Assembly: GCA_013822425.1 (NCBI GenBank)
Contig: PNKL01000006.1
Location: 21,675 to 85,674 of the forward strand
DNA from: Gemmatimonas sp.
Lineage (GTDB): Bacteria > Gemmatimonadota > Gemmatimonadetes > Gemmatimonadales > Gemmatimonadaceae
Length of the DNA stretch: 64,000 nucleotides
Direction of reading: 5' to 3'
Shown: positions 2,203 to 45,691 of the stretch, piece by piece
Layout: the number at the start of each line of letters is the position of its first letter
How positions within the stretch are numbered: the stretch's first letter is position 1
The notes under the pieces: generated by a model
Told to the model about the DNA's origin: nothing
Databases searched by the model: none
Seen by the model: only the letters and a program-made list of their open reading frames with translations
Program-made: the position numbers and the translations under genes

Positions 2203-2592
2203 TCAACTCGCAACGGAAGGCGCGGGTGACAGCAACGCGTCAATCTTTTCCTTGAGAACGGCCGGCGTGAACGGTTTGACGATGTAGTAGTTCACCTCCG
2301 ACTCCAACGCGGTGATGATGTCCTCGCGCACCGAACGCGCCGTGACCATCAGGATCGGAAGCGCCTTGCCGCCTGGACGTGAGCGAATGGCCTTGGCAAG
2401 GTCGATCCCTCCCATGTTCGGCATGTTCCAGTCGGTGATGATGAACCCGATGGCGCCATTGGAGGCATCGAACTTGTCGAGTGCCTCCTTGCCGTCGCCG
2501 GCCTCGACGACATCCGTCACCCCGATGCGCTGCAAGGAGTTGACGACGATCCGCCGCATGGTTGCGGAATCATCCACCACGAGGTACTTCAT
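2203..2592 (-). CDS. Single-domain CheY-like response regulator
   Basis: MKYLVVDDSATMRR...ITDWNMPNMGG...MVTA...IVKPF. The receiver signature residues (DD, D, T, K) are all present. Confidence 0.9.
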   Translation of the reverse strand: MKYLVVDDSATMRRIVVNSLQRIGVTDVVEAGDGKEALDKFDASNGAIGFIITDWNMPNMGGIDLAKAIRSRPGGKALPILMVTARSVREDIITALESEVNYYIVKPFTPAVLKEKIDALLSPAPSVAS

Positions 2593-2624
2593 CGCCGCTG
2601 CCTCCGTTGGGAATGTGCCGGGAA

Positions 2625-2921
2625 CTACAGATCACCGCTCAGCAGGATGCGCCTGGCGACCGCGTCGATGACGTTGGCCTGATCATACGCTCCCTGCAGA
2701 ATGCGCTGACGCACCTCGTCAATCCGTTCCGGCGTCAGCGCCGCGCTGCGCGCCAGGGCGCGACCCTCCTGCGACACCTCCACGCCATCGCTCCGTGGCA
2801 CGGCCACGGAAGCCGCGGGCACGGATGCCCTCGGTGCGGAATCGGCTCGTCCGGCCTGCACCGGCGCCTTGCCCTCTGGAACACCTCGTACTCCACCAGC
2901 GACATCACCATTGATAGTCAT
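2625..2921 (-). CDS. flgM: Anti-sigma-28 factor FlgM
   Basis: 98 aa. The C-terminal ERIDEVRQRILQGAYDQANVIDAVARRIL is typical of the FlgM sigma-28-binding region. SD GAAGGAGG lies 9 nt upstream of the ATG. Confidence 0.8.
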   Translation of the reverse strand: MTINGDVAGGVRGVPEGKAPVQAGRADSAPRASVPAASVAVPRSDGVEVSQEGRALARSAALTPERIDEVRQRILQGAYDQANVIDAVARRILLSGDL

Positions 2922-2943
2922 AGGGTAGCGCCTCCTTCATGAA

Positions 2944-2971
2944 GAATCGGTTGCCGTGCGCCGAAACTTGA
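2944..2971 (-). promoter_or_regulatory. Sigma28 (FliA)-type promoter upstream of flgM
   Basis: The reverse strand reads TCAAGTTT-N12-ACCGATTC, against the consensus TAAAGTTT-N11-GCCGATAA. It lies 23 nt upstream of the flgM ATG. Confidence 0.45.
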
Positions 2972-2978
2972 GGGAGTG

Positions 2979-3317
2979 CTATCGCCGCACATCAAGTGTC
3001 GTCCCAGAGGGGGTCTTGCCGGGCACGGGCGTCGCCTGTGCACGACCCATCGCCTCCGCAGCGACTGCGGCCTGAAGCGCGGCGGCAGCCTCATTGCGCA
3101 GGCCGGCAAGGTGGGCTCGCGTGGTCGAGGCCGAGGCCGCATGCCGCTCGACGTCCGCCACGGCTCTGGCGAGCAGGTCGTCCACGTTCAACGAACCGTC
3201 CACCGGCTCCGGCGAGACCGCCGGAAGGGCGACGACGGCATCCGGGGGCGGCACACCGTCGAACGAAGCGCGAAGGAGCGCGGCCCAGTAATGCTGCGGG
3301 GGCGTCCGGCGGTCCAT
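2979..3317 (-). CDS. Hypothetical protein, Ala-rich and helical, upstream of flgM
   Basis: Track ORF 2979..3383, trimmed to the internal ATG (MDRRTPPQHYW...) that follows the upstream ORF stop by 8 nt. No family motif recognised. Confidence 0.45.
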   Translation of the reverse strand: MDRRTPPQHYWAALLRASFDGVPPPDAVVALPAVSPEPVDGSLNVDDLLARAVADVERHAASASTTRAHLAGLRNEAAAALQAAVAAEAMGRAQATPVPGKTPSGTTLDVRR

Positions 3318-3325
3318 GGGCGAGG

Positions 3326-3703
3326 TCACGGGAGTAGCCGCAGCCACGGCCACCCGGGCCCGTCGTAGTCCGCCGCGACGCACTCAACGATGTCCAGGTG
3401 CGTGGCCTCGATAGCGACCCGGCTGCGAGCCACCTCCAAACGGTTGAGCAACTCGCGGGCGAAGTCCGACATCATCGGATGCATGACCGCCGATTCCGGC
3501 GCGCAATCCGTGTCCAGGTCCGGCGGCACGACGTCGAGGTAGTCCGACGCGCTCCTGCCGACCGTCACGTCAAGCCCTTCGCGCTCGAACGGCTCGCCGT
3601 CGCCAGGCAAACCGGCTTGGGCAGGGACGACGGGCAACGGCAACCGCCGCCGCGCCGTTTCGCGCGGCACGAGGGCTACCGGGGGAGGATGCAGGTTCTT
3701 CAC
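3326..3703 (-). CDS. Hypothetical protein
   Basis: Track ORF 3326..3808, trimmed to GTG (VKNLHPPP...) so it stays clear of the flgL promoter region. High GC3 frame. The start is uncertain. Confidence 0.4.
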   Translation of the reverse strand: MKNLHPPPVALVPRETARRRLPLPVVPAQAGLPGDGEPFEREGLDVTVGRSASDYLDVVPPDLDTDCAPESAVMHPMMSDFARELLNRLEVARSRVAIEATHLDIVECVAADYDGPGWPWLRLLP

Positions 3704-3761
3704 GCCTTCTAGTGTCGGAACGACATGCCGGAGACTTGACGGGGGAAGTCGCCAACGGCTC

Positions 3762-3776
3762 TGGCACGGTTTCTGC
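3762..3776 (+). promoter_or_regulatory. Sigma54 -24/-12 promoter upstream of flgL
   Basis: TGGCACGGTTTCTGC has GG and GC at the consensus spacing (TGGCACG-N4-TTGC). It lies 47 nt upstream of the flgL ATG. Confidence 0.55.
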
Positions 3777-3822
3777 GACCATTCGGCCCGCAGGTGCTGG
3801 CGACCCATGCCGAGGGGATCAA

Positions 3823-4728
3823 ATGCGCATCACGAACAACCGGGCCACCCAGAACGCCATTGCCTCGATTGCGGCCGCCCGCGAACGCATGGACATCGCC
3901 CAGGCGAAGCTGACGTCGGGGCGGAAGGTCCAGTCGGCCTCGGAGGACCCTGCGGCGTCGACCAGCGTGATGCAGAATGACGCCCAACTCCGCGCCATCG
4001 ACCAGTATCAACGGAACGTCGGCGCGGCGAGCCAGCGCCTCGGGCTCGAAGAGGGCGCGCTCGACCAGCTGACGGCGCTGCTGGTTCGTGCCCGTGAAAT
4101 CAGCGTCTCCGAAGCCACGGACACCGCATCACCGGCCAGTCGGCGGGCGGCCGGCGCCGAAGTCAATCAGCTGCTTGCCCAGGCAGTCCAGTTGGCGAAC
4201 ACCAAGCGGGGTGATGAGTACCTCTTCGGGGGCACCACCTCGTTGACCGCGCCATACGCCGTCGGCGCCGGAGCGGCCGCATACACCTTCTCCGTGGCGA
4301 ATCCGGCGCCCACTGGGCCGCGTCAGATCGAAATCGGGGCTGGCACGCTGATCACGTCGAACCATGACGGCACGCAGGTCTTCGGCACGGCCGCCGGTGG
4401 CCCGCTCAAGGCACTCCAGGATCTTGCCGCGGCCCTGCAGACCGGGACAACCGCTGCGGTATCGAACCTCATGCCGACGTTCGTGACCGAGATCGCAAAT
4501 GTCCAGACGCTACTCGGGGAAACTGGGGCGCGTGCCAGCCAGCTTCAGATCACCGAGTCGAACCTCACGGCGCTCAAGAACCAGATCGTCGCGTTCAACT
4601 CTGATCTTCAGGATGTGGACATGGAAGCCGTCATTACCGAACTCGCGGGACGTCAGACGGCGTATCAGGCCGCGATGGCCGCAACGGCCCGGATGTCGTC
4701 GCTCTCGCTCGCGGACTACCTCCGATGA
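3823..4728 (+). CDS. flgL: Flagellar hook-associated protein 3 (hook-filament junction) FlgL
   Basis: MRITNNRATQNAIASI...LTSGRKVQSASEDPAAS is a flagellin-type N-terminus, with a C-terminal flagellin-like helix. ATG preceded by GAGGGG. The track ORF starts upstream at 3712. Confidence 0.85.
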   Translation: MRITNNRATQNAIASIAAARERMDIAQAKLTSGRKVQSASEDPAASTSVMQNDAQLRAIDQYQRNVGAASQRLGLEEGALDQLTALLVRAREISVSEATDTASPASRRAAGAEVNQLLAQAVQLANTKRGDEYLFGGTTSLTAPYAVGAGAAAYTFSVANPAPTGPRQIEIGAGTLITSNHDGTQVFGTAAGGPLKALQDLAAALQTGTTAAVSNLMPTFVTEIANVQTLLGETGARASQLQITESNLTALKNQIVAFNSDLQDVDMEAVITELAGRQTAYQAAMAATARMSSLSLADYLR

Positions 4729-5225
4729 CCGCGACGGCTGACCCGGCCGGCCTCCCGGCGGCCCTCTCCACGCCCCGGGGCGTGACCGTGACCAGTGACC
4801 TGCTTGGCACGCTGCATGTCACCGAAGACCAGGTAATCGTGTTCGAGGCCGGCATCGCCGGGTTCAGGCAGTGCACGCGGTGGATACTCATCGACGGTGA
4901 GCGGCAGGGGACAGCTTGGCTGCAATCAGTCGACCAGGGCTCCCTGGCGTTCCTGCTCGTCGACCCGTTCTCGTTCTTCGACGGCTATTCGGTGGATCTC
5001 TCGCCGCACGACGCCCGGCGGGTGCAGGCGGAGAACGCCGCGCAGCTCGCCGTGTTTGCCATCGTGACCATTCCTGCGAGGCGCACGGACGTCCCCACGG
5101 CCAACTTGCAGGGGCCGATCGTGATCAACGTGGCCCGGCGCCGCGCCGCCCAGATTGTGCTCAGCGACGGTCCGTGGGGTGTCCGCCAACCCTTCCAACT
5201 GCTCCCGCTCGAGACCGCCGACTGA
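4725..5225 (+). CDS. fliW: Flagellar assembly factor FliW (CsrA antagonist)
   Basis: ...VIVFEAGIAGF...LAFLLVDPFSFFDGY...PTANLQGPIVIN... aligns by eye with Bacillus FliW motifs (FP.GIPGF, LAF..V.PF.FF.DY, TANLQAPI.IN). Confidence 0.85.
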   Translation: MTATADPAGLPAALSTPRGVTVTSDLLGTLHVTEDQVIVFEAGIAGFRQCTRWILIDGERQGTAWLQSVDQGSLAFLLVDPFSFFDGYSVDLSPHDARRVQAENAAQLAVFAIVTIPARRTDVPTANLQGPIVINVARRRAAQIVLSDGPWGVRQPFQLLPLETAD

Positions 5226-5294
5226 GCAACCCAGCCCCCGTAAGGCCCTCATACCGGGAAGAACCTGCCGGGTATCCGGCGAAACATACCCCCG

Positions 5295-8200
5295 GTGCCG
5301 CGCTGCCAGGAGTGCGCCATTCTAATGAAAGTCAAGCAGAAGAAGCCCGAGACCGCGCGCGCCAGCGTGCCGGTGGTCAACGCCATTCCGGGCAAGGAGC
5401 GGTTCGACGCGGCCGTCCGCCTGCATCTTGCAGGCAATCACGACGCGGCGCTTGCGGCGTACGATGACGTGATTGCGCGGTGGCCCGCGTACGCGGAGGC
5501 GCACCACAACGCCGGCACGATTCGCGCGCAGCGTGGCGAGTTCGATCACGCGATCGCCCACCTGCGCCATGCGATTTCCCAGCGCGCCACCTACGCCGAG
5601 GCGCACCACAGCCTTGGCCTCACGCTGCACCTCGCCGGTTCGCTTCGCGAGGCGATCCCGTCGTTCCGCCGTGCGGTGGAACTCAACCCGGCGTCGCTCG
5701 ACTGGTGGACCGACCTGGCGATGGCGCTCACCGCGGAGGGTTTCGTTGCTGAGGGGCTGGCCGCGAACGACCGAGCGCTGGCGCTCGCCCCTGACAGTGC
5801 GCAGGCCCGGGCAAACCGTGCCGTTCCGCTCCGGGGACTCCAGCGGCTGCAGGAGGCGATCGAGGCATGCCGCGCATCCCTCGCCCTACGGCCCGATCAT
5901 GTGGCGACCCTGGTCAACCTCGGCATGATCCAGCGCGAGGCCGGCGATTTTGAGGGGGCCCGGCAGAGCCTTGACCGCGTACTGACGCTGGAACCCGGCC
6001 ACCACAAGGCCCGTGCGAACATCGTGGCGCTGCTGCTCCAGACCAACTGCCATGCGGAAGCCCGCGACATGGCGGATGCGCTCCTCGCGGAGTTTCCCGA
6101 ATCGACGGACGCCTGGTCGCTGCTCGGCGTCTGCGCCCAGGAGGCGGGGGAGTACGCCATTGCAGAGCAATGCCAGCGCGAGGCACTGGCCCGGTCGCCC
6201 GACGACGCCGTGGTGCAGTGGAACATCGCCCAGCTCACCCTGCTTCGTGGCGACTTCGAGGAGGGCTTCCGGCAGTTTGAGTCGCGCAAAAAGCTGGACA
6301 TCTTCATGCGCTACAACCACGACGCACCCGAGTGGGACGGTGCACCGCTCGACGGGCGCACGCTGCTGGTGCACACGGAGCAGGGGTTCGGCGATTCGAT
6401 CCAGTTTGTGCGCTACCTGCCGCTGCTCAAGGCGTATGGTGCTGGGCGCGTGATCCTGGACGAGTGTCCGCCCGAACTGGCCGCGCTGCTCCGATCGGCG
6501 CCCGGGGTCGACGAGCTGGTCGTACGTGGCGACCCGCCGCCGCCCTTCGACCTGCACACCTATCTCCTGAGTCTCCCGGGCCTGCTCGGCACGACGCTCG
6601 ACACCGTGCCGTGCGAGGTGCCCTATCTGGCCGCGCCTGATCGCCCGATCGCGGCGGCGATCCGCCAGCATGGCCATGGCCTGCGCGTCGGGCTGGTGTG
6701 GGGCGGCAATCCGGCACAGCATCGCGACCGGATGCGCTCCGTGGGTCTGGCGCCGCTGGCGCCGATCCTCGGCACACCGGGGGTAACGTTCTTCTCGCTG
6801 CAGAAGGGGGGGGCAGCGGAGCAGCTCGAGCGTGCCGGCGATTGCGGGATCGTCAACCTGGACCGCGCGCTCGGTGACTTCGCCGACACCGCCGCCGCCG
6901 TCGCCGCGCTGGACCTGGTGATCACGGTGGACACGTCCGTGGCCCACCTTGCCGGGGCGTTGGGACGGCCGGTGTGGGTGCTCCTGCCGCATGTCGCATG
7001 CTGGCGATACCTGCTGAATCGTGAGGACTCGGTCTGGTATCCCACGATGCGGATCTTCCGTCAGAATGCGCCGAACGCGTGGGGACCCCCCATTGAAGCC
7101 GCCGCCGGTGCGCTCGTCAGCGCGGTGCTCGACCGGACGATGCTCGCCACGCGCCTGAGGTCGCGAAACGACGCGGTGCCGCCGGCGCCGCGGAGCCGGT
7201 CCCCGCAGGCCGACCAGGCGCGCGTGCGCCCACATGACGTGAGGCGACGTCCCATCGAGATCGACTGGCCCATCGGACTCACGTCTGGCTGGGGGACGTA
7301 CGGCCTGCATCTCGCGCTGGCGCTGCGGCAGTCGGAACGTGCGTTTCCGGTGTTGGCGGCAGCGCCCACGCTGCAGGGTGCGAGTCCACTCGTCGAGCGC
7401 GCGGTGCAGGCGATGGTGCGCGCCCTGCCCGCCGAAGACGCCACCGACGCCATTCACCTCACGGCACTGGGCAACCATGTTCTTGGCGCGACCCCGGACG
7501 AGCAACCACGCCGCGGCCGCCGCGTCGGCGTGATCTTCTTCGAGGACACGTCATTCGACGAGTCGGCGCAGGCGCGCGCGCGCGCGTACGAAGTGCTGAT
7601 TGCCGGCTCGTCGTGGAACGCCGAGATGCTCAAGGATGCCGGGATTCGCAACGTACGGCTCGTCCTGCAGGGGATCGACCCGTCAATTTTCCATCCCGCG
7701 CCGCGCACGGGCATCTTCGGCGACCGCTTTCTGGTCTTCTCGGGCGGAAAGCTCGAGTTCCGCAAGGGGCAGGACATCGTGGTGGAGGCGTTTCGCCGCT
7801 TCCACGCCACGCACCCGGACGCGATGCTGGTGACCGCGTGGCACAATCACTGGCCCGAGACAATGGCTGGCATCGATGCGATGGGGTACGTGCGCGGCTT
7901 TCCGGCGGTGCGCGGCGGCCGCTGCGAGATCACGCCCTGGCTGGTGGCCAACGGCGTGGCGAAGGACGCCGTGCTTGACCTCGGGCTGCAGCCGCATGCC
8001 GTGCTGGCCCAGGTGCTGCGGGAGATGGACGTGGCCGTGTTCACGAACCGGAGCGAAGGGGGCACGAACCTCGTGGCGATGGAAGCGATGGCGTGCGGCG
8101 TGCCCACCATCCTGTCGGCAAACACGGGGCACCTGAACCTGATCGGCCGCGACACATGCTTCACGCTTGAGCGGCAGCCGCCGGTGTCGGTGACGACGCC

Positions 8201-8381
8201 GGCATTCCGCGGGACGGTGCTATGGGGCGAGTCCGACCCCGAGGAAGTGGTGGCGCAACTCGAGCGTGCGTACGACGACCGTGCGGAGGCCGCCCGGCGC
8301 GGCGCCGAGGGCGCCAGGCTCCTTGCGCAGCTCCCGTGGGCGGCCCAGGCCGCCGAACTTCTGCGGCAGCTCGATGTCTGA
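5295..8381 (+). CDS. Three-module protein: N-terminal TPR repeats + GT9 (heptosyltransferase)-like domain + C-terminal GT4/GT1-type glycosyltransferase
   Basis: TPR repeats at aa ~40-330 (repeated A..Y...I...P.YAEAH.NLG pattern). GT9-like at aa ~350-650 (HTEQGFGDSIQFVRYLPLL, DLVITVDTSVAHLAGALGRPVWVLLP). GT4 at aa ~690-1028 (GGKLEFRKGQD, NRSEGGTNLVAMEAMACGVPTI). The start may instead be the ATG at 5325 (MKVKQKKPE). Confidence 0.85.
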   Translation: MPRCQECAILMKVKQKKPETARASVPVVNAIPGKERFDAAVRLHLAGNHDAALAAYDDVIARWPAYAEAHHNAGTIRAQRGEFDHAIAHLRHAISQRATYAEAHHSLGLTLHLAGSLREAIPSFRRAVELNPASLDWWTDLAMALTAEGFVAEGLAANDRALALAPDSAQARANRAVPLRGLQRLQEAIEACRASLALRPDHVATLVNLGMIQREAGDFEGARQSLDRVLTLEPGHHKARANIVALLLQTNCHAEARDMADALLAEFPESTDAWSLLGVCAQEAGEYAIAEQCQREALARSPDDAVVQWNIAQLTLLRGDFEEGFRQFESRKKLDIFMRYNHDAPEWDGAPLDGRTLLVHTEQGFGDSIQFVRYLPLLKAYGAGRVILDECPPELAALLRSAPGVDELVVRGDPPPPFDLHTYLLSLPGLLGTTLDTVPCEVPYLAAPDRPIAAAIRQHGHGLRVGLVWGGNPAQHRDRMRSVGLAPLAPILGTPGVTFFSLQKGGAAEQLERAGDCGIVNLDRALGDFADTAAAVAALDLVITVDTSVAHLAGALGRPVWVLLPHVACWRYLLNREDSVWYPTMRIFRQNAPNAWGPPIEAAAGALVSAVLDRTMLATRLRSRNDAVPPAPRSRSPQADQARVRPHDVRRRPIEIDWPIGLTSGWGTYGLHLALALRQSERAFPVLAAAPTLQGASPLVERAVQAMVRALPAEDATDAIHLTALGNHVLGATPDEQPRRGRRVGVIFFEDTSFDESAQARARAYEVLIAGSSWNAEMLKDAGIRNVRLVLQGIDPSIFHPAPRTGIFGDRFLVFSGGKLEFRKGQDIVVEAFRRFHATHPDAMLVTAWHNHWPETMAGIDAMGYVRGFPAVRGGRCEITPWLVANGVAKDAVLDLGLQPHAVLAQVLREMDVAVFTNRSEGGTNLVAMEAMACGVPTILSANTGHLNLIGRDTCFTLERQPPVSVTTPAFRGTVLWGESDPEEVVAQLERAYDDRAEAARRGAEGARLLAQLPWAAQAAELLRQLDV

Positions 8382-9240
8382 GAGCGCCACCGTGCGCGAT
8401 TTGACGAGCCACCGTGAGCCGATGGCCCTGACCCTCACGACGCCACGCGGCGATGTCCACCGCCTCGTCTATGCCTTCGATCGCACCAGTCCGGTGCAGC
8501 ACGCCATGCGGACCCTGGTCGACGCGGGCGAGTTCTACGAACCGGAAACGACCATCCTGCTTGCCTCGGTGCTCAAGCCCGGCGACACGTTCGTGGACGT
8601 CGGCGCGCACGTGGGCTACTTCACGGTCCTCGCCGCCGCGCTCGTGGGTTCCGCCGGCCAGGTGGTGAGTTTCGAGCCCGAGCCCGGCAACTACGCGCAG
8701 CTGGTCGAGCACATCCGCCTGAACGGCTACTCACAGGTGCTGCCGATTCATTGTGCCGCGGGCGTCGTGGAGGGTGTGCGCGATCTGCACTGCAATGCGG
8801 ACAACGATGGCGGGCATGCCCTCTGGGACGTGCGGCGCCATCCGTACAACCAGCGTTCGCGTGCGGCCCCGCGCACGCATGCCGTCTTCGTGTCGACGCT
8901 CGACCGCGTGCTCGGGAACGTCGCGACCGGGCGCATCAAGGCCATCAAGATCGACGTCGAGGGCAACGAGCACGACGTGCTCCGGGGCGCCAGGCAGATG
9001 CTCGAGCGGCATTGCGTGCCCTTCGTGATCGCGGAGGTGAACCGCATGGGGCTCGAGCAGGCCGGGTCGAGTCAGGCCGCTCTTCGCGCGTTCATGACCA
9101 TGCTTGGCTACGAATGCTGGCTGCTGCAAACCGCCGAACCGCAGCTGGTGCGAGTCGAGGCCGGCCAGGAAGTCGTGACCACGGACGGTGACGGCGTGTT
9201 CAATCTGCTCTTTCGCCGCCCCGGGGCCGTCATCGGCTGA
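8374..9240 (+). CDS. FkbM-family SAM-dependent methyltransferase
   Basis: GDTFVDVGAHVGYFTVLAA...VVSFEPEP.NY..L...I..N...IKIDVEGNEHDVLRG. The ATG overlaps the upstream stop (ATGTCTGA), suggesting translational coupling to the TPR/GT gene. Confidence 0.85.
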   Translation: MSESATVRDLTSHREPMALTLTTPRGDVHRLVYAFDRTSPVQHAMRTLVDAGEFYEPETTILLASVLKPGDTFVDVGAHVGYFTVLAAALVGSAGQVVSFEPEPGNYAQLVEHIRLNGYSQVLPIHCAAGVVEGVRDLHCNADNDGGHALWDVRRHPYNQRSRAAPRTHAVFVSTLDRVLGNVATGRIKAIKIDVEGNEHDVLRGARQMLERHCVPFVIAEVNRMGLEQAGSSQAALRAFMTMLGYECWLLQTAEPQLVRVEAGQEVVTTDGDGVFNLLFRRPGAVIG

Positions 9241-9256
9241 TTCTTGCTTGCCCCGC

Positions 9257-9283
9257 TAAAGTCGGGAGCGGTCGGCTCGATAC
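9257..9283 (+). promoter_or_regulatory. Sigma28 (FliA)-type promoter of the flagellin gene
   Basis: TAAAGTCG-N11-CTCGATAC against the consensus TAAAGTTT-N11-GCCGATAA. It lies ~80 nt upstream of the fliC ATG. Confidence 0.6.
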
Positions 9284-9319
9284 TGAACTCTGAGCCAGCG
9301 ACACCAAGGCCGCTGGCCT

Positions 9320-9339
9320 CGGGGGAACGGAATCCTCCG
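9320..9339 (+). promoter_or_regulatory. Candidate CsrA-binding hairpin (GGA in loop) in the fliC 5' leader
   Basis: CGGGGG/AACGGAAT/CCTCCG forms a 6-bp stem (one G-U pair) with an 8-nt loop presenting ACGGA. A second GGA lies inside the SD AAGGAG at 9352-9357. Confidence 0.4.
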
Positions 9340-9363
9340 CGTACCACCACCAAGGAGCAGGTC

Positions 9364-10479
9364 ATGCGGATCAACACCAACGTGAGCGCCCTCGGAGCCG
9401 CTCGCAACCTCGGAACCGTGCAGAGCAGCATCGCAAAGTCGAGCGAGAAGCTGTCGTCCGGCTTCCGGATCAACCGTGCCTCCGACGACGCCGCCGGGCT
9501 TGGCGTCGCCAACACGTTCGCCAGCGACATTCGGGCGTACACGCAGGCGTCGTCCAACGCCGAGCAGGCGCAGGCGGTGTTCAACATCGCCGAAGGCGCC
9601 GCAGGATCGGTCGTGTCGCTGCTGCAGCGCATGAAGGAACTCGCGGTGCAGGCGGCGTCGGACACCGTCGACAGCAACGCCCGGGCCCGCGCGAACGACG
9701 AGTACGTCGCGCTCTACAACGAAATGGACCGGACGATCGACACGTCGAAGTTCCAGGGCAGCGTGATCATGGACGGTACGTTCGGCAAGACGGCCGGCGC
9801 GACGTCGGCGACGTTCGCGTCCGTCGGCATCTACTCCGTGACGCAGTCCTCGACGGCGACGGCCGGGACGTACACCCTGCAGTCGGCCAGTGCCACGCAG
9901 GTCAAGCTGATCAACGCCACGACGGCGCAGACGCTGACCGTGGGCCTCAGCGCCGGCACCAACAACTCGCTGAACTTCTCGGTCTTCGGCATCACGGTGA
10001 ACACCGACAACGCGATCGCCATCGGCAATACGCAGCAGCTGACCGCGACGATTACGGCCGGCGCAGCCACTGGCAACGGCACGTTCCAGGTGGGTGCGTC
10101 GGGTTCGGGCGCGAGCGACACCATCGTCACCACCGCCTCGGACTTCGACCTGGCGACCTCGCAGGGCCTCGTCGCCGCGACCAGCGTGACCACGCTCGCC
10201 AATGCGTCCGCGGCCATCACCGTGCTGGACACGGCCATCAACACGTCGAGCAGCGTGCTTGGCAAGATCGGCGCCTACCAGAGCCGGGTCGGCTCGGCGC
10301 TCAACAACCTGAAGACGCTCATCCAGAACTACCAGGCGGCCGAGAGCGTGATCCGCGACGTCGACATGGCAACGGAAATGGTGAAGTTCTCGAAGAACCA
10401 GGTCCTTGCGCAGGCCGGCACGGCGGTGCTCGCGCAGGCGAACCAGGCAGGCCAGGGCATCCTGCAGTTGTTCCGGTAG
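9364..10479 (+). CDS. fliC: Flagellin
   Basis: MRINTNVSALGAARNLG...LSSGFRINRASDDAAGL..., C-terminal ...LAQANQAGQGILQLFR, and a Thr/Ser/Ala-rich central region. SD AAGGAG 6 nt upstream. The track ORF starts upstream at 9244. Confidence 0.95.
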   Translation: MRINTNVSALGAARNLGTVQSSIAKSSEKLSSGFRINRASDDAAGLGVANTFASDIRAYTQASSNAEQAQAVFNIAEGAAGSVVSLLQRMKELAVQAASDTVDSNARARANDEYVALYNEMDRTIDTSKFQGSVIMDGTFGKTAGATSATFASVGIYSVTQSSTATAGTYTLQSASATQVKLINATTAQTLTVGLSAGTNNSLNFSVFGITVNTDNAIAIGNTQQLTATITAGAATGNGTFQVGASGSGASDTIVTTASDFDLATSQGLVAATSVTTLANASAAITVLDTAINTSSSVLGKIGAYQSRVGSALNNLKTLIQNYQAAESVIRDVDMATEMVKFSKNQVLAQAGTAVLAQANQAGQGILQLFR

Positions 10480-10512
10480 TTGATGGGTTGGTGAGATCGT
10501 TGTTTCCGACGA

Positions 10513-10538
10513 CCCCGGAGCCGGCATCGGCTCCGGGG
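10513..10538 (+). terminator. GC-rich hairpin between fliC and fliD (terminator or attenuator; no U-tract)
   Basis: CCCCGGAGCCG-gcat-CGGCTCCGGGG, a perfect 11-bp stem, 34 nt after the fliC stop. Confidence 0.45.
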
Positions 10539-10572
10539 CGTCGGCATGGCGGGACAACCAGGGAGGGGCGGC

Positions 10573-13260
10573 GTGACGGGTCCAATCGGTACGATCAGCG
10601 GCCTGAGCAGCGGCATCCAGTGGCGCGACCTGATCGACCAGATCATGAACGCCGAACGGGCACGCACGCTCGACCCGGTCACGGCGCGCCAGGCCCAGCT
10701 GAACAGGCAGTCGGCGGCCTGGACGACCTTCCGTGGCCTGGCGGACAAGGTGCGCACCACGGCGGCGGCGCTGCGCGAGCAGACGTCGTTCGATGCGCTG
10801 TCCGCCTCGGCCACGCGGAGCGGCACGACCAGCCGGGATCTCGTGTCGGCCACGGCGGCCACCGGAGCGTCTCCCGGCTCCTACGGCGTGGAAGTGCTGG
10901 CTGTCGCGCGCGCCGAGAAGCTGGGCGGCTACTTCGTATCCGACAGCTCAGCCGCGCTGGGCATCAGCGGCTCGTTCGCGCTGAACGGCGTTTCGATCAC
11001 CATCGCCGCCGGCGACTCGCTGGTGGGCGTCCGTGACAAGATCAATGCCGCAAACACCGGGGCCGCCGCCAGCGGCGTCAGCGCCTCGATCATCTCGACG
11101 GCGGCCGGTGCGCATATCGTGCTCGCCAGCAGCGCCACGGGCGCGGCCGGCATTGACACGGTGGACGGCTCGACCGGCACGCTGCAGGCGCTCGGGTTCA
11201 TCGACGCGACCACCACGGCGAACATCGCCGCGTCGGGCGCCACGCAAACGAACCGCATGGCGAGTGCGACGGTCGCGATCGGGGCATCCCTCGGGCTCAC
11301 GATGCCGGCCGCCACGAGCATCAAGGTCGGCGGCGCGGTCGTTGCGGTCGACCTGTCGGTCGATTCGCTCACGACCATCGCCAACAAGATCAATACGGCG
11401 ACGGGCAACGCCACGGCAGCCAACGTGCAGTCGGAGACGATTGGCGGGAAGACCTCGTACCGGCTCGTCACGAATGCTACGGTTGCGACCGACGCCAGCA
11501 TCAACGCGGTTGACAGCGCGCGCGCCCTGGCGGTGCTTGGCTTCACCACGCCAGGGCACGCCGGTGTCACGCAGGTCCTCAAGAGCGCCAACACCTTTGT
11601 GGACGGCGGGACAGCGCTCAATGCGACCGGCGCGGCCCTGCTCACCGCACTCCAGACGAACGGCCAGTTGCTGGGCATCACGGCGACCGACACGGTCACG
11701 ATCACGGGCACCCGCGGCGACGGAACAACATTCACGGGGACTGTGGCGGTTGGTGCCGGCACCACGCTGCAGAACCTGGTTGACGCGGTGACTGCGGCCG
11801 GCGCCGGTGCCCGCGCGGCCACGGCTTCGCTGTCGGGCGGCCGCATCGTGCTGACCGACGGGACCAGTGGCGATTCGCAGCTCGCGCTGTCGCTGACCGT
11901 CACCAAGGCAGGCGGTGCGACCACGAGCCTCGGCGCATTCGCCACGGGGAACGGTGGCACCACGGGCGTCAGTCGCCAGCTGGCGGCCGGCATGGATGCC
12001 CAACTTCGCGTCGACGGTCAACTCGTGACGCGGGCATCGAATACGGTGTCCGATGCCATTGCGGGCGTCACGCTGAACGTGCTGGCCGCCGAACCGGGCA
12101 CGTCGGTCAACCTCTCGCTGGTCCGGGACGCCAACGTCATCGTACAGAAGGTCCAGGACTTCGTGGCCGCGTACAACGGCGTCAAGCAGTTCGTGGCGAC
12201 CTACACCGGCGAGTCGGGAACGTTTGCGCGCAATGGCGCCCTCAGGGCCATGAGTGCGGCGCTCACCAGCGGACTCCTGGGCAGCGTCACGGGCCTCACG
12301 GGCACCTTTACGACCGCTGCGGCCGCTGGCCTGCAGCACGACAAGGCGGGCACGCTCTCGCTGGACGTGACGAAGTTCGCCGGCTTCCTGCAGACGGACT
12401 TCGCCGGCGTGAAGAAAATATTCTCGATGACCGGCACGCCGAGTGACTCGGAGGTGATGTTCATCACCGCGAGCGCTGCCGCGAAGCCGACGACGTCGCC
12501 CTATGCGGTGACGATCACGCAGGCGGCGACACAGGCGGCGGTCACCGGAGCGATCTGGGCGACGTACGCCACGGCCGGGGCACCCGACACCATGACGGTG
12601 ACCGATGCGTCAACCGGGGCAGTGGGCGCCATCACGCTCGCCAATGGCGACGCGATCGCCACCACGGTGCAGAAGCTCAACTCGCTGTTCGCGACGACGA
12701 AGATGCAGCTGACGGCGACGGTGACCGGCGACAGCCGGGTGAAGATCACGGGGACGGGCTATGGCACGGGTGCCGGATTTACCGTGGCGTACACGCCCGG
12801 CGCCGGCGGCGACGGTACGGCAGCGCTCGGCATCTCCGCGCAGAGCTACACGGGCCTCGACGTCGCAGGGACGATCAACGGGGTAGCCGCGACCGGACTC
12901 GGCCAGTCGCTCACCGGCGCCGCAGGCGACGCCAGTGCCGGCATCGTGCTCCGGTACACGGGCACGACGGCGCGCGCCGCCGGCACGATTGCGTTGTCGG
13001 TCGGCGTTGGCGGTGCCCTCACCAGCGTGGCGACGGGCATTGCGGACGCGCTCACCGGCACCGCCACGCGTGCCGCCACCGACGCCACGGAGCAGGCCGT
13101 CAACCTGCGGGAACGCATTGCCGGGCTCCAGCGCCGCCTCGACATGCGGCGCGCCGCGCTTACCGCGCAGTTCCTGGCCATGGAATCGGCGCTCGCCAAG
13201 GCGCAGGCCGTGGGCGGCGCGCTCACGGCGCAGATCAACGGGCTTCAGAGAGACAAATGA
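10573..13260 (+). CDS. fliD: Filament cap protein FliD (HAP2), unusually long (~895 aa)
   Basis: N-terminus ..GTISGLSSGIQWRDLIDQIMNAERA... and C-terminus ...RIAGLQRRLDMRRAALTAQFLAMESALAKAQ... are the FliD N and C regions. GTG at 10573 follows GGGAGGGG. An alternative in-frame ATG lies at 10546. Confidence 0.85.
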   Translation: MTGPIGTISGLSSGIQWRDLIDQIMNAERARTLDPVTARQAQLNRQSAAWTTFRGLADKVRTTAAALREQTSFDALSASATRSGTTSRDLVSATAATGASPGSYGVEVLAVARAEKLGGYFVSDSSAALGISGSFALNGVSITIAAGDSLVGVRDKINAANTGAAASGVSASIISTAAGAHIVLASSATGAAGIDTVDGSTGTLQALGFIDATTTANIAASGATQTNRMASATVAIGASLGLTMPAATSIKVGGAVVAVDLSVDSLTTIANKINTATGNATAANVQSETIGGKTSYRLVTNATVATDASINAVDSARALAVLGFTTPGHAGVTQVLKSANTFVDGGTALNATGAALLTALQTNGQLLGITATDTVTITGTRGDGTTFTGTVAVGAGTTLQNLVDAVTAAGAGARAATASLSGGRIVLTDGTSGDSQLALSLTVTKAGGATTSLGAFATGNGGTTGVSRQLAAGMDAQLRVDGQLVTRASNTVSDAIAGVTLNVLAAEPGTSVNLSLVRDANVIVQKVQDFVAAYNGVKQFVATYTGESGTFARNGALRAMSAALTSGLLGSVTGLTGTFTTAAAAGLQHDKAGTLSLDVTKFAGFLQTDFAGVKKIFSMTGTPSDSEVMFITASAAAKPTTSPYAVTITQAATQAAVTGAIWATYATAGAPDTMTVTDASTGAVGAITLANGDAIATTVQKLNSLFATTKMQLTATVTGDSRVKITGTGYGTGAGFTVAYTPGAGGDGTAALGISAQSYTGLDVAGTINGVAATGLGQSLTGAAGDASAGIVLRYTGTTARAAGTIALSVGVGGALTSVATGIADALTGTATRAATDATEQAVNLRERIAGLQRRLDMRRAALTAQFLAMESALAKAQAVGGALTAQINGLQRDK

Positions 13261-13312
13261 CGGGACGATACTGGGAGCAGACCAACCACCTGCACCCCGG
13301 GGAGTACCTCGC

Positions 13313-13717
13313 GTGACCGTTTCCTATTCTGCGCGCGCGTATCGTGAAGCGGACGTCCTGGCCGCGTCACCCAGCCGTCTCGTGGTCATCACGTATGACG
13401 GCATGATCTCGTCTCTCCTGCGGGCGCGGGCCGGCATCGTGGCCGGCAATCTCGAGGTCACGCTGCCCGCCCTCGACAAGGCACGGGCGTTCGTGGCTGA
13501 ACTGCTGGCGGCCCTGGACCGCGGAAAGGGCGGTGAACTGGCCGGCAACCTGGCCAGCATCTACGTGTTCGTGCTCGTCGAATTGCAGACGATGACGAAG
13601 AGCCGCAACGTCCAGCGACTTGACACGCTCATCGAACTGATGCGGGAGCTGCGCGAGGCCTTCGCCACGATCGCGGAAGACGCGGCGAAGGAACCCTCGC
13701 GCAGCGCCGTCGCGTGA
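13313..13717 (+). CDS. fliS: Flagellin-specific chaperone FliS
   Basis: VSYSARAYREADVLAASPSRLVVITYDGMISSL...LASIYVFVLVEL... GTG start preceded by GGGGAG. The track ORF 12935..13717 has a spurious N-terminal extension. Confidence 0.85.
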   Translation: MTVSYSARAYREADVLAASPSRLVVITYDGMISSLLRARAGIVAGNLEVTLPALDKARAFVAELLAALDRGKGGELAGNLASIYVFVLVELQTMTKSRNVQRLDTLIELMRELREAFATIAEDAAKEPSRSAVA

Positions 13718-14079
13718 TCTGCAGCCCGAAGGACGCCATCGACCGGCTTGGCGACCTGGCCAGCCTCTTCGAGCACGCCCGGCAGCATGCACAAAGCGAC
13801 TCCGTCGCGCTGTCGGAGATGCTCGACCAGGCGCAACGCATGCTTGAGGACATCGCCCCGGCCGCGGCCGCCGCACGCAACACGCCGCACGAGGCGGCGG
13901 TGCTGCAGGCCGCGCTGCGGGCGAAGGACAGCCACTCGGCGCTCGTCGGCGAGATCGGTTTCGGGGTGGCCAAGCTTGCCGGTGAACTCCGGCAACTGAC
14001 CGCCGGGGCGCAGGCCACCGACCGCTACCTGCCGGCGGCGACGGGCGTGCAGGTACGACCCATGAATCGGGTCGGCTGA
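13714..14079 (+). CDS. Hypothetical helical protein in the fliT position (fliD-fliS-X)
   Basis: GTGA overlap with the fliS stop. 121 aa, helical, Ala/Gln/Leu-rich. Any FliT-like role is inferred from position only. Confidence 0.5.
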   Translation: MICSPKDAIDRLGDLASLFEHARQHAQSDSVALSEMLDQAQRMLEDIAPAAAAARNTPHEAAVLQAALRAKDSHSALVGEIGFGVAKLAGELRQLTAGAQATDRYLPAATGVQVRPMNRVG

Positions 14080-16858: not shown

Positions 16859-17476
16859 GTGTCCTCTGTCACCAACCAGCGTCACTCCGCAGGGAATTCG
16901 CCCGCATGGGTCCCATCGCGCGAGGCGCTCCCCGCCCTGCTCAACGCCCGGGGCCTCCTTGGCATCGGAGTCGAGGTGGGTGTCAAGCAGGGGTTGTTTT
17001 CGGAACACCTCCTGACGCACTGGCTGGGCCGTCAGCTCATCTCCATCGACCCGTGGGCCGAAGATGACGCCGTGGCCTACGTGGACATTGCGAATGTGCC
17101 GCAACCGCAGCATGAGGCCTACTTCGCGGAAACGAGGGAACGGCTGGCGCCATTCGGGTCGCGCAGCTCGATATGGCGCATGACGTCCGCCGAGGGAACG
17201 GCGCAGGTCGAAGATGCGACGCTGGACTTCGCATACATCGATGCCCGGCATGACTTCGCTTCGGTCATGGAGGACTGCGCCCTCTGGCTGCCGAAGATGC
17301 GTCCTGGCGGCATTCTGGCCGGCCACGACTACATTGACGGCGAATTCCCAGCCGGCGTCTTTGGCGTCAAGAGCGCCGTCGACAAGTTCTTTGCCGAACG
17401 CGGCATCCAGGTGCATCACACGCTCTTCGACCGGCCATGGCTGTCGTGGCTGACGGTGATTCCACCGGCGGACTGA
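16859..17476 (+). CDS. Class I SAM-dependent methyltransferase (TylF/CmcI-like small MTase)
   Basis: GIGVEVGVKQGLFSEHLL (motif I), FAYIDARHDF, MRPGGILAGHDY. Confidence 0.75.
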   Translation: MSSVTNQRHSAGNSPAWVPSREALPALLNARGLLGIGVEVGVKQGLFSEHLLTHWLGRQLISIDPWAEDDAVAYVDIANVPQPQHEAYFAETRERLAPFGSRSSIWRMTSAEGTAQVEDATLDFAYIDARHDFASVMEDCALWLPKMRPGGILAGHDYIDGEFPAGVFGVKSAVDKFFAERGIQVHHTLFDRPWLSWLTVIPPAD

Positions 17477-45445: not shown

Positions 45446-45691
45446 ATGCTGATCCTCGGCCGCAAGGCAGGCGAGGCAATCCTCATTGACGGGGGCGTGC
45501 GCATCGTCGTCTTGAGCGTCGACCGCAAGGGGGTCCGACTCGGCATCGAAGCCCCGTCCGATGTGCGAATCGTCCGTGACGAGATCGTCGGTGAGGTCGC
45601 GGACGAGAATCGGCGGGCAACAGCCACTGGCCGGGAGTGGCTCAGCGCCGTTCCGGTGAGGGCGCGCGGGGGGGCCGCAGGTGCTGCGTGA
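45446..45691 (+). CDS. csrA: Carbon storage regulator / translational repressor CsrA
   Basis: MLILGRKAGEAILIDGGVRIVVLSVDRKGVRLGIEAPSDVRIVRDEI is near-consensus CsrA, with a ~30-aa C-terminal extension. Confidence 0.9.
   Translation: MLILGRKAGEAILIDGGVRIVVLSVDRKGVRLGIEAPSDVRIVRDEIVGEVADENRRATATGREWLSAVPVRARGGAAGAA

Follow-up and report, generated by a model that had tools for sequence, protein, structure and literature searches.

The 64-kb window considered here (the whole stretch of DNA analysed, 64,000 nucleotides of contig PNKL01000006.1 from Gemmatimonas sp., phylum Gemmatimonadota) carries a flagellar gene cluster in which a three-module gene lies between fliW and fliC. The encoded protein joins a tetratricopeptide repeat (TPR) module, a glycosyltransferase (GT) module resembling family GT9 and a second GT module of family GT4. 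Judged from its sequence and by analogy, the protein is rather likely to be an FlmG-type enzyme that O-glycosylates flagellin in the cytoplasm and has acquired a further catalytic module. A flagellin glycosylation enzyme in which both modules are active is also favoured, with fair confidence, and the flagellar filament is probably decorated with a short, possibly methylated sugar chain. An earlier note on this DNA had proposed a candidate flagellin O-glycosylation machine at this locus. The proposal is now supported by homology to FlmG, by synteny in nine of nine loci, by invariant GT motifs and by an FkbM-family methyltransferase gene in seven of the nine clusters.

FlmG is necessary and sufficient for the modification of flagellin with pseudaminic acid (Pse), and its TPR domain binds flagellins in bacterial two-hybrid (BACTH) assays (PMC7591256). 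The 596-aa protein consists of a TPR domain (aa 1-313) and a GT-B domain (aa 309-596) (PMC7591256). A reference sequence was obtained from the flmG primers in the supplement of PMC7591256, by searching genome contigs with a codon-degenerate pattern of the W-S-G-Q-D-L-R-G-K site. The exact 23-nt primer had no match in the contigs searched; the codon-degenerate version found the 598-aa FlmG orthologue of Caulobacter vibrioides OR37 (L010:1796-3592, minus strand). In BLASTP, aa 156-586 of the window protein align with aa 157-580 of OR37 FlmG at 26% identity (E 3e-26), colinear over the TPR and GT-B parts. The GT9-like module alone matches the FlmG GT domain with 29% identity over 277 aa (E 9e-21). 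What the earlier note had drawn as an analogy to FlmG is thus real homology. Because of the colinear alignment and the alignment of the GT modules, the N-terminal 60% of the three-module protein is, on sequence evidence, an FlmG homologue to which the GT4 module has been added.

Both proteins have an N-terminal TPR region of ~300 aa followed by a GT-B domain of ~290 aa, share a TEQG[FL]GD motif in the N-lobe and a W-x-G-x-x-L-x-G-[KR] entry motif, and belong to flagellar gene sets. Unlike FlmG, which has a TPR region and one GT-B domain, the window protein continues after a linker into a 380-aa GT4 module that is conserved in orthologues. The window gene also differs in its phylum, in its place between fliW and fliC, and in having no genes for Pse or legionaminic acid (Leg) in the window. 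The three-module protein is therefore described here as an FlmG-type enzyme in a different architecture, not as an FlmG orthologue. As a separate observation, contig L016, from a metagenome-assembled genome (MAG) labelled Bradyrhizobium sp., contains a flmG-like ORF of 605 aa that matches OR37 FlmG in length and in its N-lobe and C-lobe stretches. This contig is probably mis-binned.

The open reading frame (ORF) of the three-module gene spans 5295-8381 on the forward strand. It had been counted as 1028 aa; the ORF itself exists, but translation likely starts at the first in-frame ATG (5325, MKVKQKK...) rather than at the GTG (5295), for a protein of 1018 aa. Pfam TPR matches are strong across aa ~30-300. 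Blocks of 34 aa cut from aa 23 yield eight TPRs in exact register (aa 23-294) plus a capping repeat ending in GDFEEGFRQFESRK, in agreement with the roughly eight repeats seen before. By analogy with FlmG, the TPR module is predicted to be the flagellin-binding part. In the domain searches with hidden Markov models (HMMs) that the earlier note had called for, TPR, Glycos_transf_1 and FkbM scored above cutoff and Glyco_transf_9 below it.

The middle module had been read as a heptosyltransferase-like GT9 domain. Its match to Glyco_transf_9 (PF01075), limited to 32 aa (aa 519-550), reaches 20.3 bits where the cutoff is 22; many homologues do have precomputed PF01075 matches. Fold comparison was used because a PDB sequence search with the module alone (aa ~315-612) gave no match even at E up to 10. 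With 42 homologues as input, AlphaFold2 (AF2) modelled aa 300-645 at a mean predicted local distance difference test (pLDDT) score of 88.7. The best PDB matches of this model in Foldseek are all GT9 enzymes, namely 3tov (E 7e-9), WaaF (1psw) and WaaC (2gt1, 2h1h), all within E 6e-6, and TibC (4rap, 4rb4) at E 5e-5, and GT41 OGT homologues rank after them. Both motifs quoted earlier for the domain are present: TEQGFGD in the N-lobe holds the candidate catalytic Asp357, and VDTSVAHLAGALGRP in the C-lobe holds Asp536 and His541. Among homologues (42-47 sequences across both modules), E-Q-G-x-G-D (Asp357) and V-D-T-x-x-x-H-L-A (Asp536, His541) are invariant. By modelled fold and by motifs, the middle module is GT9-like, though it falls under the Pfam GT9 threshold. 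By analogy it would be inverting, and because it is fused to TPRs it is probably protein-directed.

WaaC and WaaF (2h1h, 1psw) and the GT9 protein 3tov, the best structural matches, share with the module the N-lobe G-D and the C-lobe D-[TS]-x-x-x-H-[LV]-[AT]-x-A-L; however, identity is only 12-14% and PF01075 stays under cutoff in the window protein. In a MAFFT alignment, the C-lobe motif VDTSVAHLAGALGRP of the three-module protein stands beside VDTGLSHLTAALDRP in WaaC, NDSGLMHVAAALNRP in WaaF and FSNATINLAGACGAA in FlmG. The window protein keeps the canonical heptosyltransferase form, VDTSVAHL (VDTSVAHLAGALG) compared with VDTGLSHL in WaaC, whereas Caulobacter FlmG has FSNATINL (FSNATINLAGACG), in which Asp is replaced by Ser and His by Asn. 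TPR-linked relatives from Casimicrobiaceae retain the canonical form. In WaaC, the Asp of this motif contacts the heptose. Since the GT9-like module keeps the canonical motif, unlike FlmG, its sequence suggests a donor other than the CMP-nonulosonate of FlmG, and possibly no nonulosonic acid at all.

This motif bears directly on whether the enzyme acts exactly as FlmG does, with the GT9-like module transferring a nonulosonic acid (Pse or Leg, from a CMP donor) to flagellin while the GT4 module and FkbM only decorate this sugar or act elsewhere. Such action would fit the homology, and the characterised FlmG enzymes of Caulobacter and Brevundimonas use Pse or Leg (PMC7591256; bioRxiv 10.1101/2022.03.25.485807). 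It is nevertheless unlikely, given the canonical C-lobe donor-site motif and the lack of Pse, Leg or NeuB-type genes within the 64-kb flagellar window, although these could be elsewhere in the genome.

The C-terminal module matches PF00534 (Glycos_transf_1) at 42.9 bits against a cutoff of 26.4, over aa 886-942. An AF2 model of aa 636-1018 has a pLDDT of 93.6 and matches the retaining GT4 structures 3oy2, HepE, MshA, PimA, BshA and SenB in Foldseek at template modelling (TM) scores of 0.6-0.7. The GT4 assignment made earlier is upheld, but the accompanying claim of two different GT folds is not: by their models, both modules are GT-B folds, and it is the family that differs (GT9-like and GT4). 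The module carries the motifs GGKLEFRKGQD and E911-x8-E920 (SEGGTNLVAMEA). Across its homologues, G-G-K-L-E-x-R-K-G-Q-D and E-G-G-T-N-L-x-A-M-E are invariant, with E911, E920 and the intervening GGTNL unchanged in 47 sequences. By analogy, the GT4 module would be retaining.

Among the fold matches of the GT4 module is also SdgB (7ec6), a GT4-type protein O-glycosyltransferase, and nothing in the sequence fixes the order of transfer. The GT4 module could thus initiate on Ser/Thr and the GT9-like module extend, or the two could work independently and place different monosaccharides on different sites. These arrangements are quite improbable, because the GT9-like module of FlmG suffices by itself for direct modification of flagellin (PMC7591256) and because the GT4 module is an optional C-terminal addition, found in only 51 of the 120 best homologues, cyanobacterial proteins included.

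The closest proteins to the three-module protein come from Gemmatimonadaceae and Gemmatimonadetes MAGs, with 93% identity in one Logan assembly and up to 77-78% in named MAGs. Eight relatives' loci (43-77% identity), taken with 10-kb flanks, were compared with the window, making nine Gemmatimonadota loci. The order flgL-fliW-[TPR-GT9like-GT4]-...-fliC-fliD-fliS is kept in all nine. Directly upstream of the GT gene stands fliW in every locus, and it abuts or overlaps the GT gene in L003, L005 and L027. The check proposed earlier, of whether the architecture is conserved next to flagellin genes or lies away from them in relatives, thus places it beside flagellar genes in nine of nine loci. In L004 (10001-13055), two overlapping genes of 754 and 282 aa are called in place of a single orthologue. 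A naturally split fusion was rejected, as the break falls within the GT4 domain and the overlapping ORFs are not in one frame; from the sequence, a frameshift or assembly error is most likely, or else a pseudogene. A different variation is seen in P0062 (L005 10001-13645) and in similar Gemmatimonadota variants of 1200-1300 aa, which have an insert of ~260 aa between the GT9-like and GT4 modules (aa ~590-850 in P0062). The P0062 insert has no Pfam match; over 32 aa it faintly resembles FkbM motif I (LQPGDALVDAAPGLG, E 0.002), and it may be a degenerate methyltransferase-like domain.

The gene for the FkbM-family S-adenosylmethionine (SAM) methyltransferase begins before the three-module gene ends. 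As had been noted, its ATG at 8374 lies inside ATGTCTGA (8374-8381), whose TGA is the stop of the three-module gene, and both FkbM family HMMs score above cutoff (Table 1). FkbM orthologues with 49-77% identity occur in six other loci. The gene is directly downstream of the GT gene in five of the nine loci (the window, L004, L005, L025 and L026). In two more (L003 and L027), true orthologues at 49-51% identity lie ~3.4-4.3 kb upstream on the opposite strand, so that an FkbM orthologue is inside the flagellar cluster in seven of nine. Coupling to the GT gene is frequent, not universal.

Two further glycan-gene candidates in the cluster were overlooked in the earlier inventory. One is a stand-alone GT4 glycosyltransferase gene after fliS and a 121-aa ORF; its product is 79% identical to the L025 orthologue, which starts MRLLVLNCHE, and the gene occupies the same position in L002, L004, L025 and L026. 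An origin as a paralogue of the fused GT4 module was rejected, a 23-aa motif being the only match. The other encodes a Methyltransf_24-family SAM methyltransferase, after a sigma-54 activator gene. It is also present in L001 and L025, and a gene of this family adjoins a Geobacter TPR-GT9-like gene. PDB sequence searches with the FkbM and Methyltransf_24 proteins gave generic matches or none. The stand-alone GT4 and the Methyltransf_24 enzyme are likely to be extra parts of the same glycan pathway.

These components can be arranged into a pathway. By the precedent of FlmG, the eight-repeat TPR module would bind newly made flagellin, and the GT9-like module, inverting by analogy, would attach the first sugar to Ser/Thr in the central domain, which is exposed. 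As the architecture suggests, the tethered GT4 module, retaining by analogy, would add a second sugar. The translationally coupled FkbM enzyme would then O-methylate the glycan, a step proposed on account of the known O-methyltransferase roles of the FkbM family and of reports that place FkbM genes in islands predicted to serve flagellin glycosylation (PMC4875605). Further elaboration of the glycan may come from the stand-alone GT4 and the Methyltransf_24 enzyme. In the presumed acceptor FliC, the central domain (aa 141-285) contains 32% Ser+Thr compared with 15-18% in the termini, as expected from the Thr/Ser-rich region described before, and the value is 27-34% in nine of nine orthologues.

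Several points weigh against this pathway. A Ser/Thr-rich central domain is common in flagellins, glycosylated or not. The Glu pair of the GT4 module has the spacing E-x8-E, one residue beyond the usual E-x7-E. No nucleotide-sugar biosynthesis genes were found among the ~50 window ORFs scanned against Pfam, as the earlier note had also stated. In two of the nine loci (L001 and L002), FkbM was not found within 10 kb in gene tables or by tblastn. Literature searches for flagellin glycosylation in Gemmatimonadota returned no relevant paper. The GT9-like module also occurs in non-flagellated cyanobacteria, where the protein examined has no flagellar context, and in Chthonobacter albigriseus (L024 4576-16130) a 1700-aa three-module TPR-GT9-like protein is encoded beside a TPR protein, a GT4 gene, a C39-peptidase-type ABC exporter and an AprE/HlyD-like protein. 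This neighbourhood hints that some relatives may glycosylate type I secretion substrates. Because the family is huge and also occurs in non-flagellar contexts, the module alone does not imply flagellin; the assignment rests on synteny and FlmG homology.

An acceptor other than flagellin (another flagellar or surface component, such as FliD, hook proteins or a glycolipid), or a chiefly regulatory or chaperone role towards flagellin through the TPRs, on the model of the bifunctional GmaR of Listeria, is very unlikely: relatives without flagellar context, an unusually long FliD (904 aa) and a place within a FliW/CsrA regulatory neighbourhood would fit, but strict placement upstream of fliC in nine of nine loci and homology to a proven flagellin GT argue against another acceptor, and the conserved catalytic motifs argue against a purely regulatory role.

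The flagellin enzyme proposed here belongs to a wide family. The 120 best homologues carry one to four copies of the GT9-like module each, with TPR blocks between them. A HMMER scan with the module alone returned 40,441 clusters (50% identity) at E <= 1e-3 and 18,471 at E <= 1e-30. In the best matches, as many as six stretches of one protein are matched, and protein length reaches 3,140 aa. Arrays of 2-6 tandem TPR-GT units are seen in Geobacter, Pirellulales, Ramlibacter, cyanobacteria and others. One four-module Geobacter protein adjoins flaF, a Methyltransf_24 gene, another methyltransferase and GT genes. FlmG is the sole characterised member found for the TPR-linked GT9-like family. The GT9-like module is thus a general GT unit, probably protein-directed.

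A bolder and doubtful view is that the TPR-linked GT9-like module serves as the catalytic unit in a very large and almost unstudied class of cytoplasmic protein O-glycosyltransferases (~40,000 clusters, 1-6 modules, up to ~3,100 aa), with FlmG as a divergent nonulosonic-acid member and the Gemmatimonadota enzyme as a minimal 'assembly line'. If so, the canonical GT9 module would put heptose or another NDP-sugar on flagellin, as TibC and AAH do on autotransporters. The tethered GT4 module would extend it and FkbM would cap it by O-methylation, giving a defined methylated di- or oligosaccharide from one substrate-docked polypeptide.

Related themes are known from other systems. The autotransporter heptosyltransferases TibC and AAH (4rap, 4rb4) are also GT9-like GT-B enzymes that O-glycosylate protein Ser in the cytoplasm. 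Unlike the window protein, they lack TPRs, assemble into dodecamers that contain iron and modify the passenger domains of autotransporters, and they have no detectable sequence similarity to the window module. Predicted flagellin glycosylation islands of Enterobacteriaceae and Geobacillus contain FkbM genes as well as GTs of the TPR/SPINDLY type (GT41) that carry fused methyltransferase domains (PMC4875605, PMC5109656). They share with the window a repeat-containing GT-B flagellin GT and methyltransferases, including the FkbM family, beside flagellin genes. However, the island enzymes are of GT41/COG3914 or GT2 with a methyltransferase fusion, whereas in the window a GT9-like module is fused to GT4 and FkbM is a separate, overlapping gene. 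The general theme of a repeat-type flagellin GT with a methyltransferase, and of FkbM in flagellin islands, is already predicted elsewhere. Literature searches for an FlmG-GT4 fusion, and for glycosyltransferase family 9 with flagellin and tetratricopeptide, found no relevant paper.

So far, FlmG has been studied in Caulobacterales as a two-domain, single-sugar enzyme. A natural FlmG-GT4 fusion, with its substrate encoded next door, would offer a compact system in which to study how TPR acceptor docking is coupled to sequential sugar transfers. It would also serve as a model for the divergence of donor specificity in the module family, the GT9 motifs being canonical in the window protein but altered in FlmG, and for methylation capping of flagellin glycans. 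For Gemmatimonadota, a phylum abundant in soil, such an enzyme would open a first way into flagellin modification, and it draws attention to the very large family of multi-module TPR-GT9-like proteins.

Table 1. Features of the three-module gene and its surroundings, in window coordinates.
Feature	Position	Strand	Basis
flgL, hook-filament junction protein	3712..4728	+	TIGR02550 FlgL, 189.7 bits
fliW, flagellin-binding assembly factor and CsrA antagonist	4725..5225	+	PF02623, 117 bits
Three-module gene (TPR, GT9-like GT-B, GT4 GT-B), 1018 aa; FlmG homologue with C-terminal extension	5325..8381	+	
TPR module, 8 repeats in 34-aa register, aa 23-294	5391..6206	+	Pfam TPR_1/2/8/16 and others
Capping repeat and GT9-like GT-B module, aa 295-612	6207..7160	+	AF2, Foldseek, alignment to WaaC/WaaF/FlmG
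Arg/Pro/Ser-rich linker, aa 613-639	7161..7241	+	pLDDT <50 at model residues 328-339; sequence
GT4 module, aa 640-1018	7242..8378	+	PF00534, AF2, Foldseek
FkbM-family SAM methyltransferase, 288 aa	8374..9240	+	PF05050, 73 bits (cutoff 22.7); TIGR01444, 93.8 bits (cutoff 37.7)
Sigma-28-like promoter upstream of fliC, TAAAGTCG-N11-CTCGATA	9257..9282	+	
fliC 5' untranslated region (5'UTR): GGA-containing hairpin (GGGGGAACGGAATCCTCC) and GGA-containing Shine-Dalgarno (AAGGAGCAGGTC)	9319..9363	+	Conserved; loci aligned by eye
fliC flagellin, 371 aa, presumed acceptor	9364..10479	+	Flagellin_N and Flagellin_C
fliD filament cap, 904 aa	10546..13260	+	FliD_N and FliD_C
fliS flagellin chaperone, start approximate	13319..13717	+	PF02561, 82.5 bits on ORF 12935-13717, from aa 134
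Stand-alone GT4 glycosyltransferase, ~329 aa	14121..15110	-	PF13692 and PF00534
Methyltransf_24-family SAM methyltransferase, after sigma-54 activator gene	16859..17476	+	PF13578, 61.9 bits

The features around the three-module gene are listed in Table 1. The gene had been placed between fliW and the only flagellin gene, and this position holds, as a tblastn search of the window with FliC gave no further flagellin. The sigma-28 promoter claimed before fliC corresponds to a sigma-28-like site at 9257, the sole TAAAG-N16-CGATA in the window. Of the six loci examined, window included, five have such a site upstream of fliC, and L003 has a TCAAG variant. A scan of 2500-10700 for sigma-70 promoters and terminators gave nothing beyond shuffled expectation. 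The true start of flgL is probably ~37 codons downstream of the listed ORF start; its orthologues have 293-327 aa.

Downstream of the promoter, the GGA elements of the fliC 5'UTR are, from their sequence, candidate CsrA sites. A csrA-like gene, whose product is 37% identical to E. coli CsrA (E 1.6e-9), lies at 45446-45691 (+), after flgK and far from fliW. Together, the csrA-like gene, the conserved GGA hairpin and the GGA-containing Shine-Dalgarno suggest a partner switch among FliW, CsrA and flagellin, into which the glycosyltransferase gene is inserted between fliW and fliC.

The G+C content of the window is 66-71%. Besides the glycan-gene candidates, the window ORFs with a Pfam match are flagellar, chemotaxis or signalling genes, except for three outliers at the window edges: an Ig-like Big_1 protein, an LPP20-type lipoprotein and a caspase-domain protein. 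Several ORFs have no match. None of the scanned window proteins has a Pfam match to MAF_flag10 or to the GT-A central domain of Maf flagellin glycosyltransferases, and gmhA, hldE, gmhB and hldD are not found in the window. Next to fliS, an ORF at 13714-14079 (+) is conserved at 118-139 aa and overlaps or closely follows the fliS stop in nine of nine loci. It falls in no Pfam family, with only a faint Flagellin_N-like match (E 0.08), and may be an uncharacterised flagellar chaperone or regulator.

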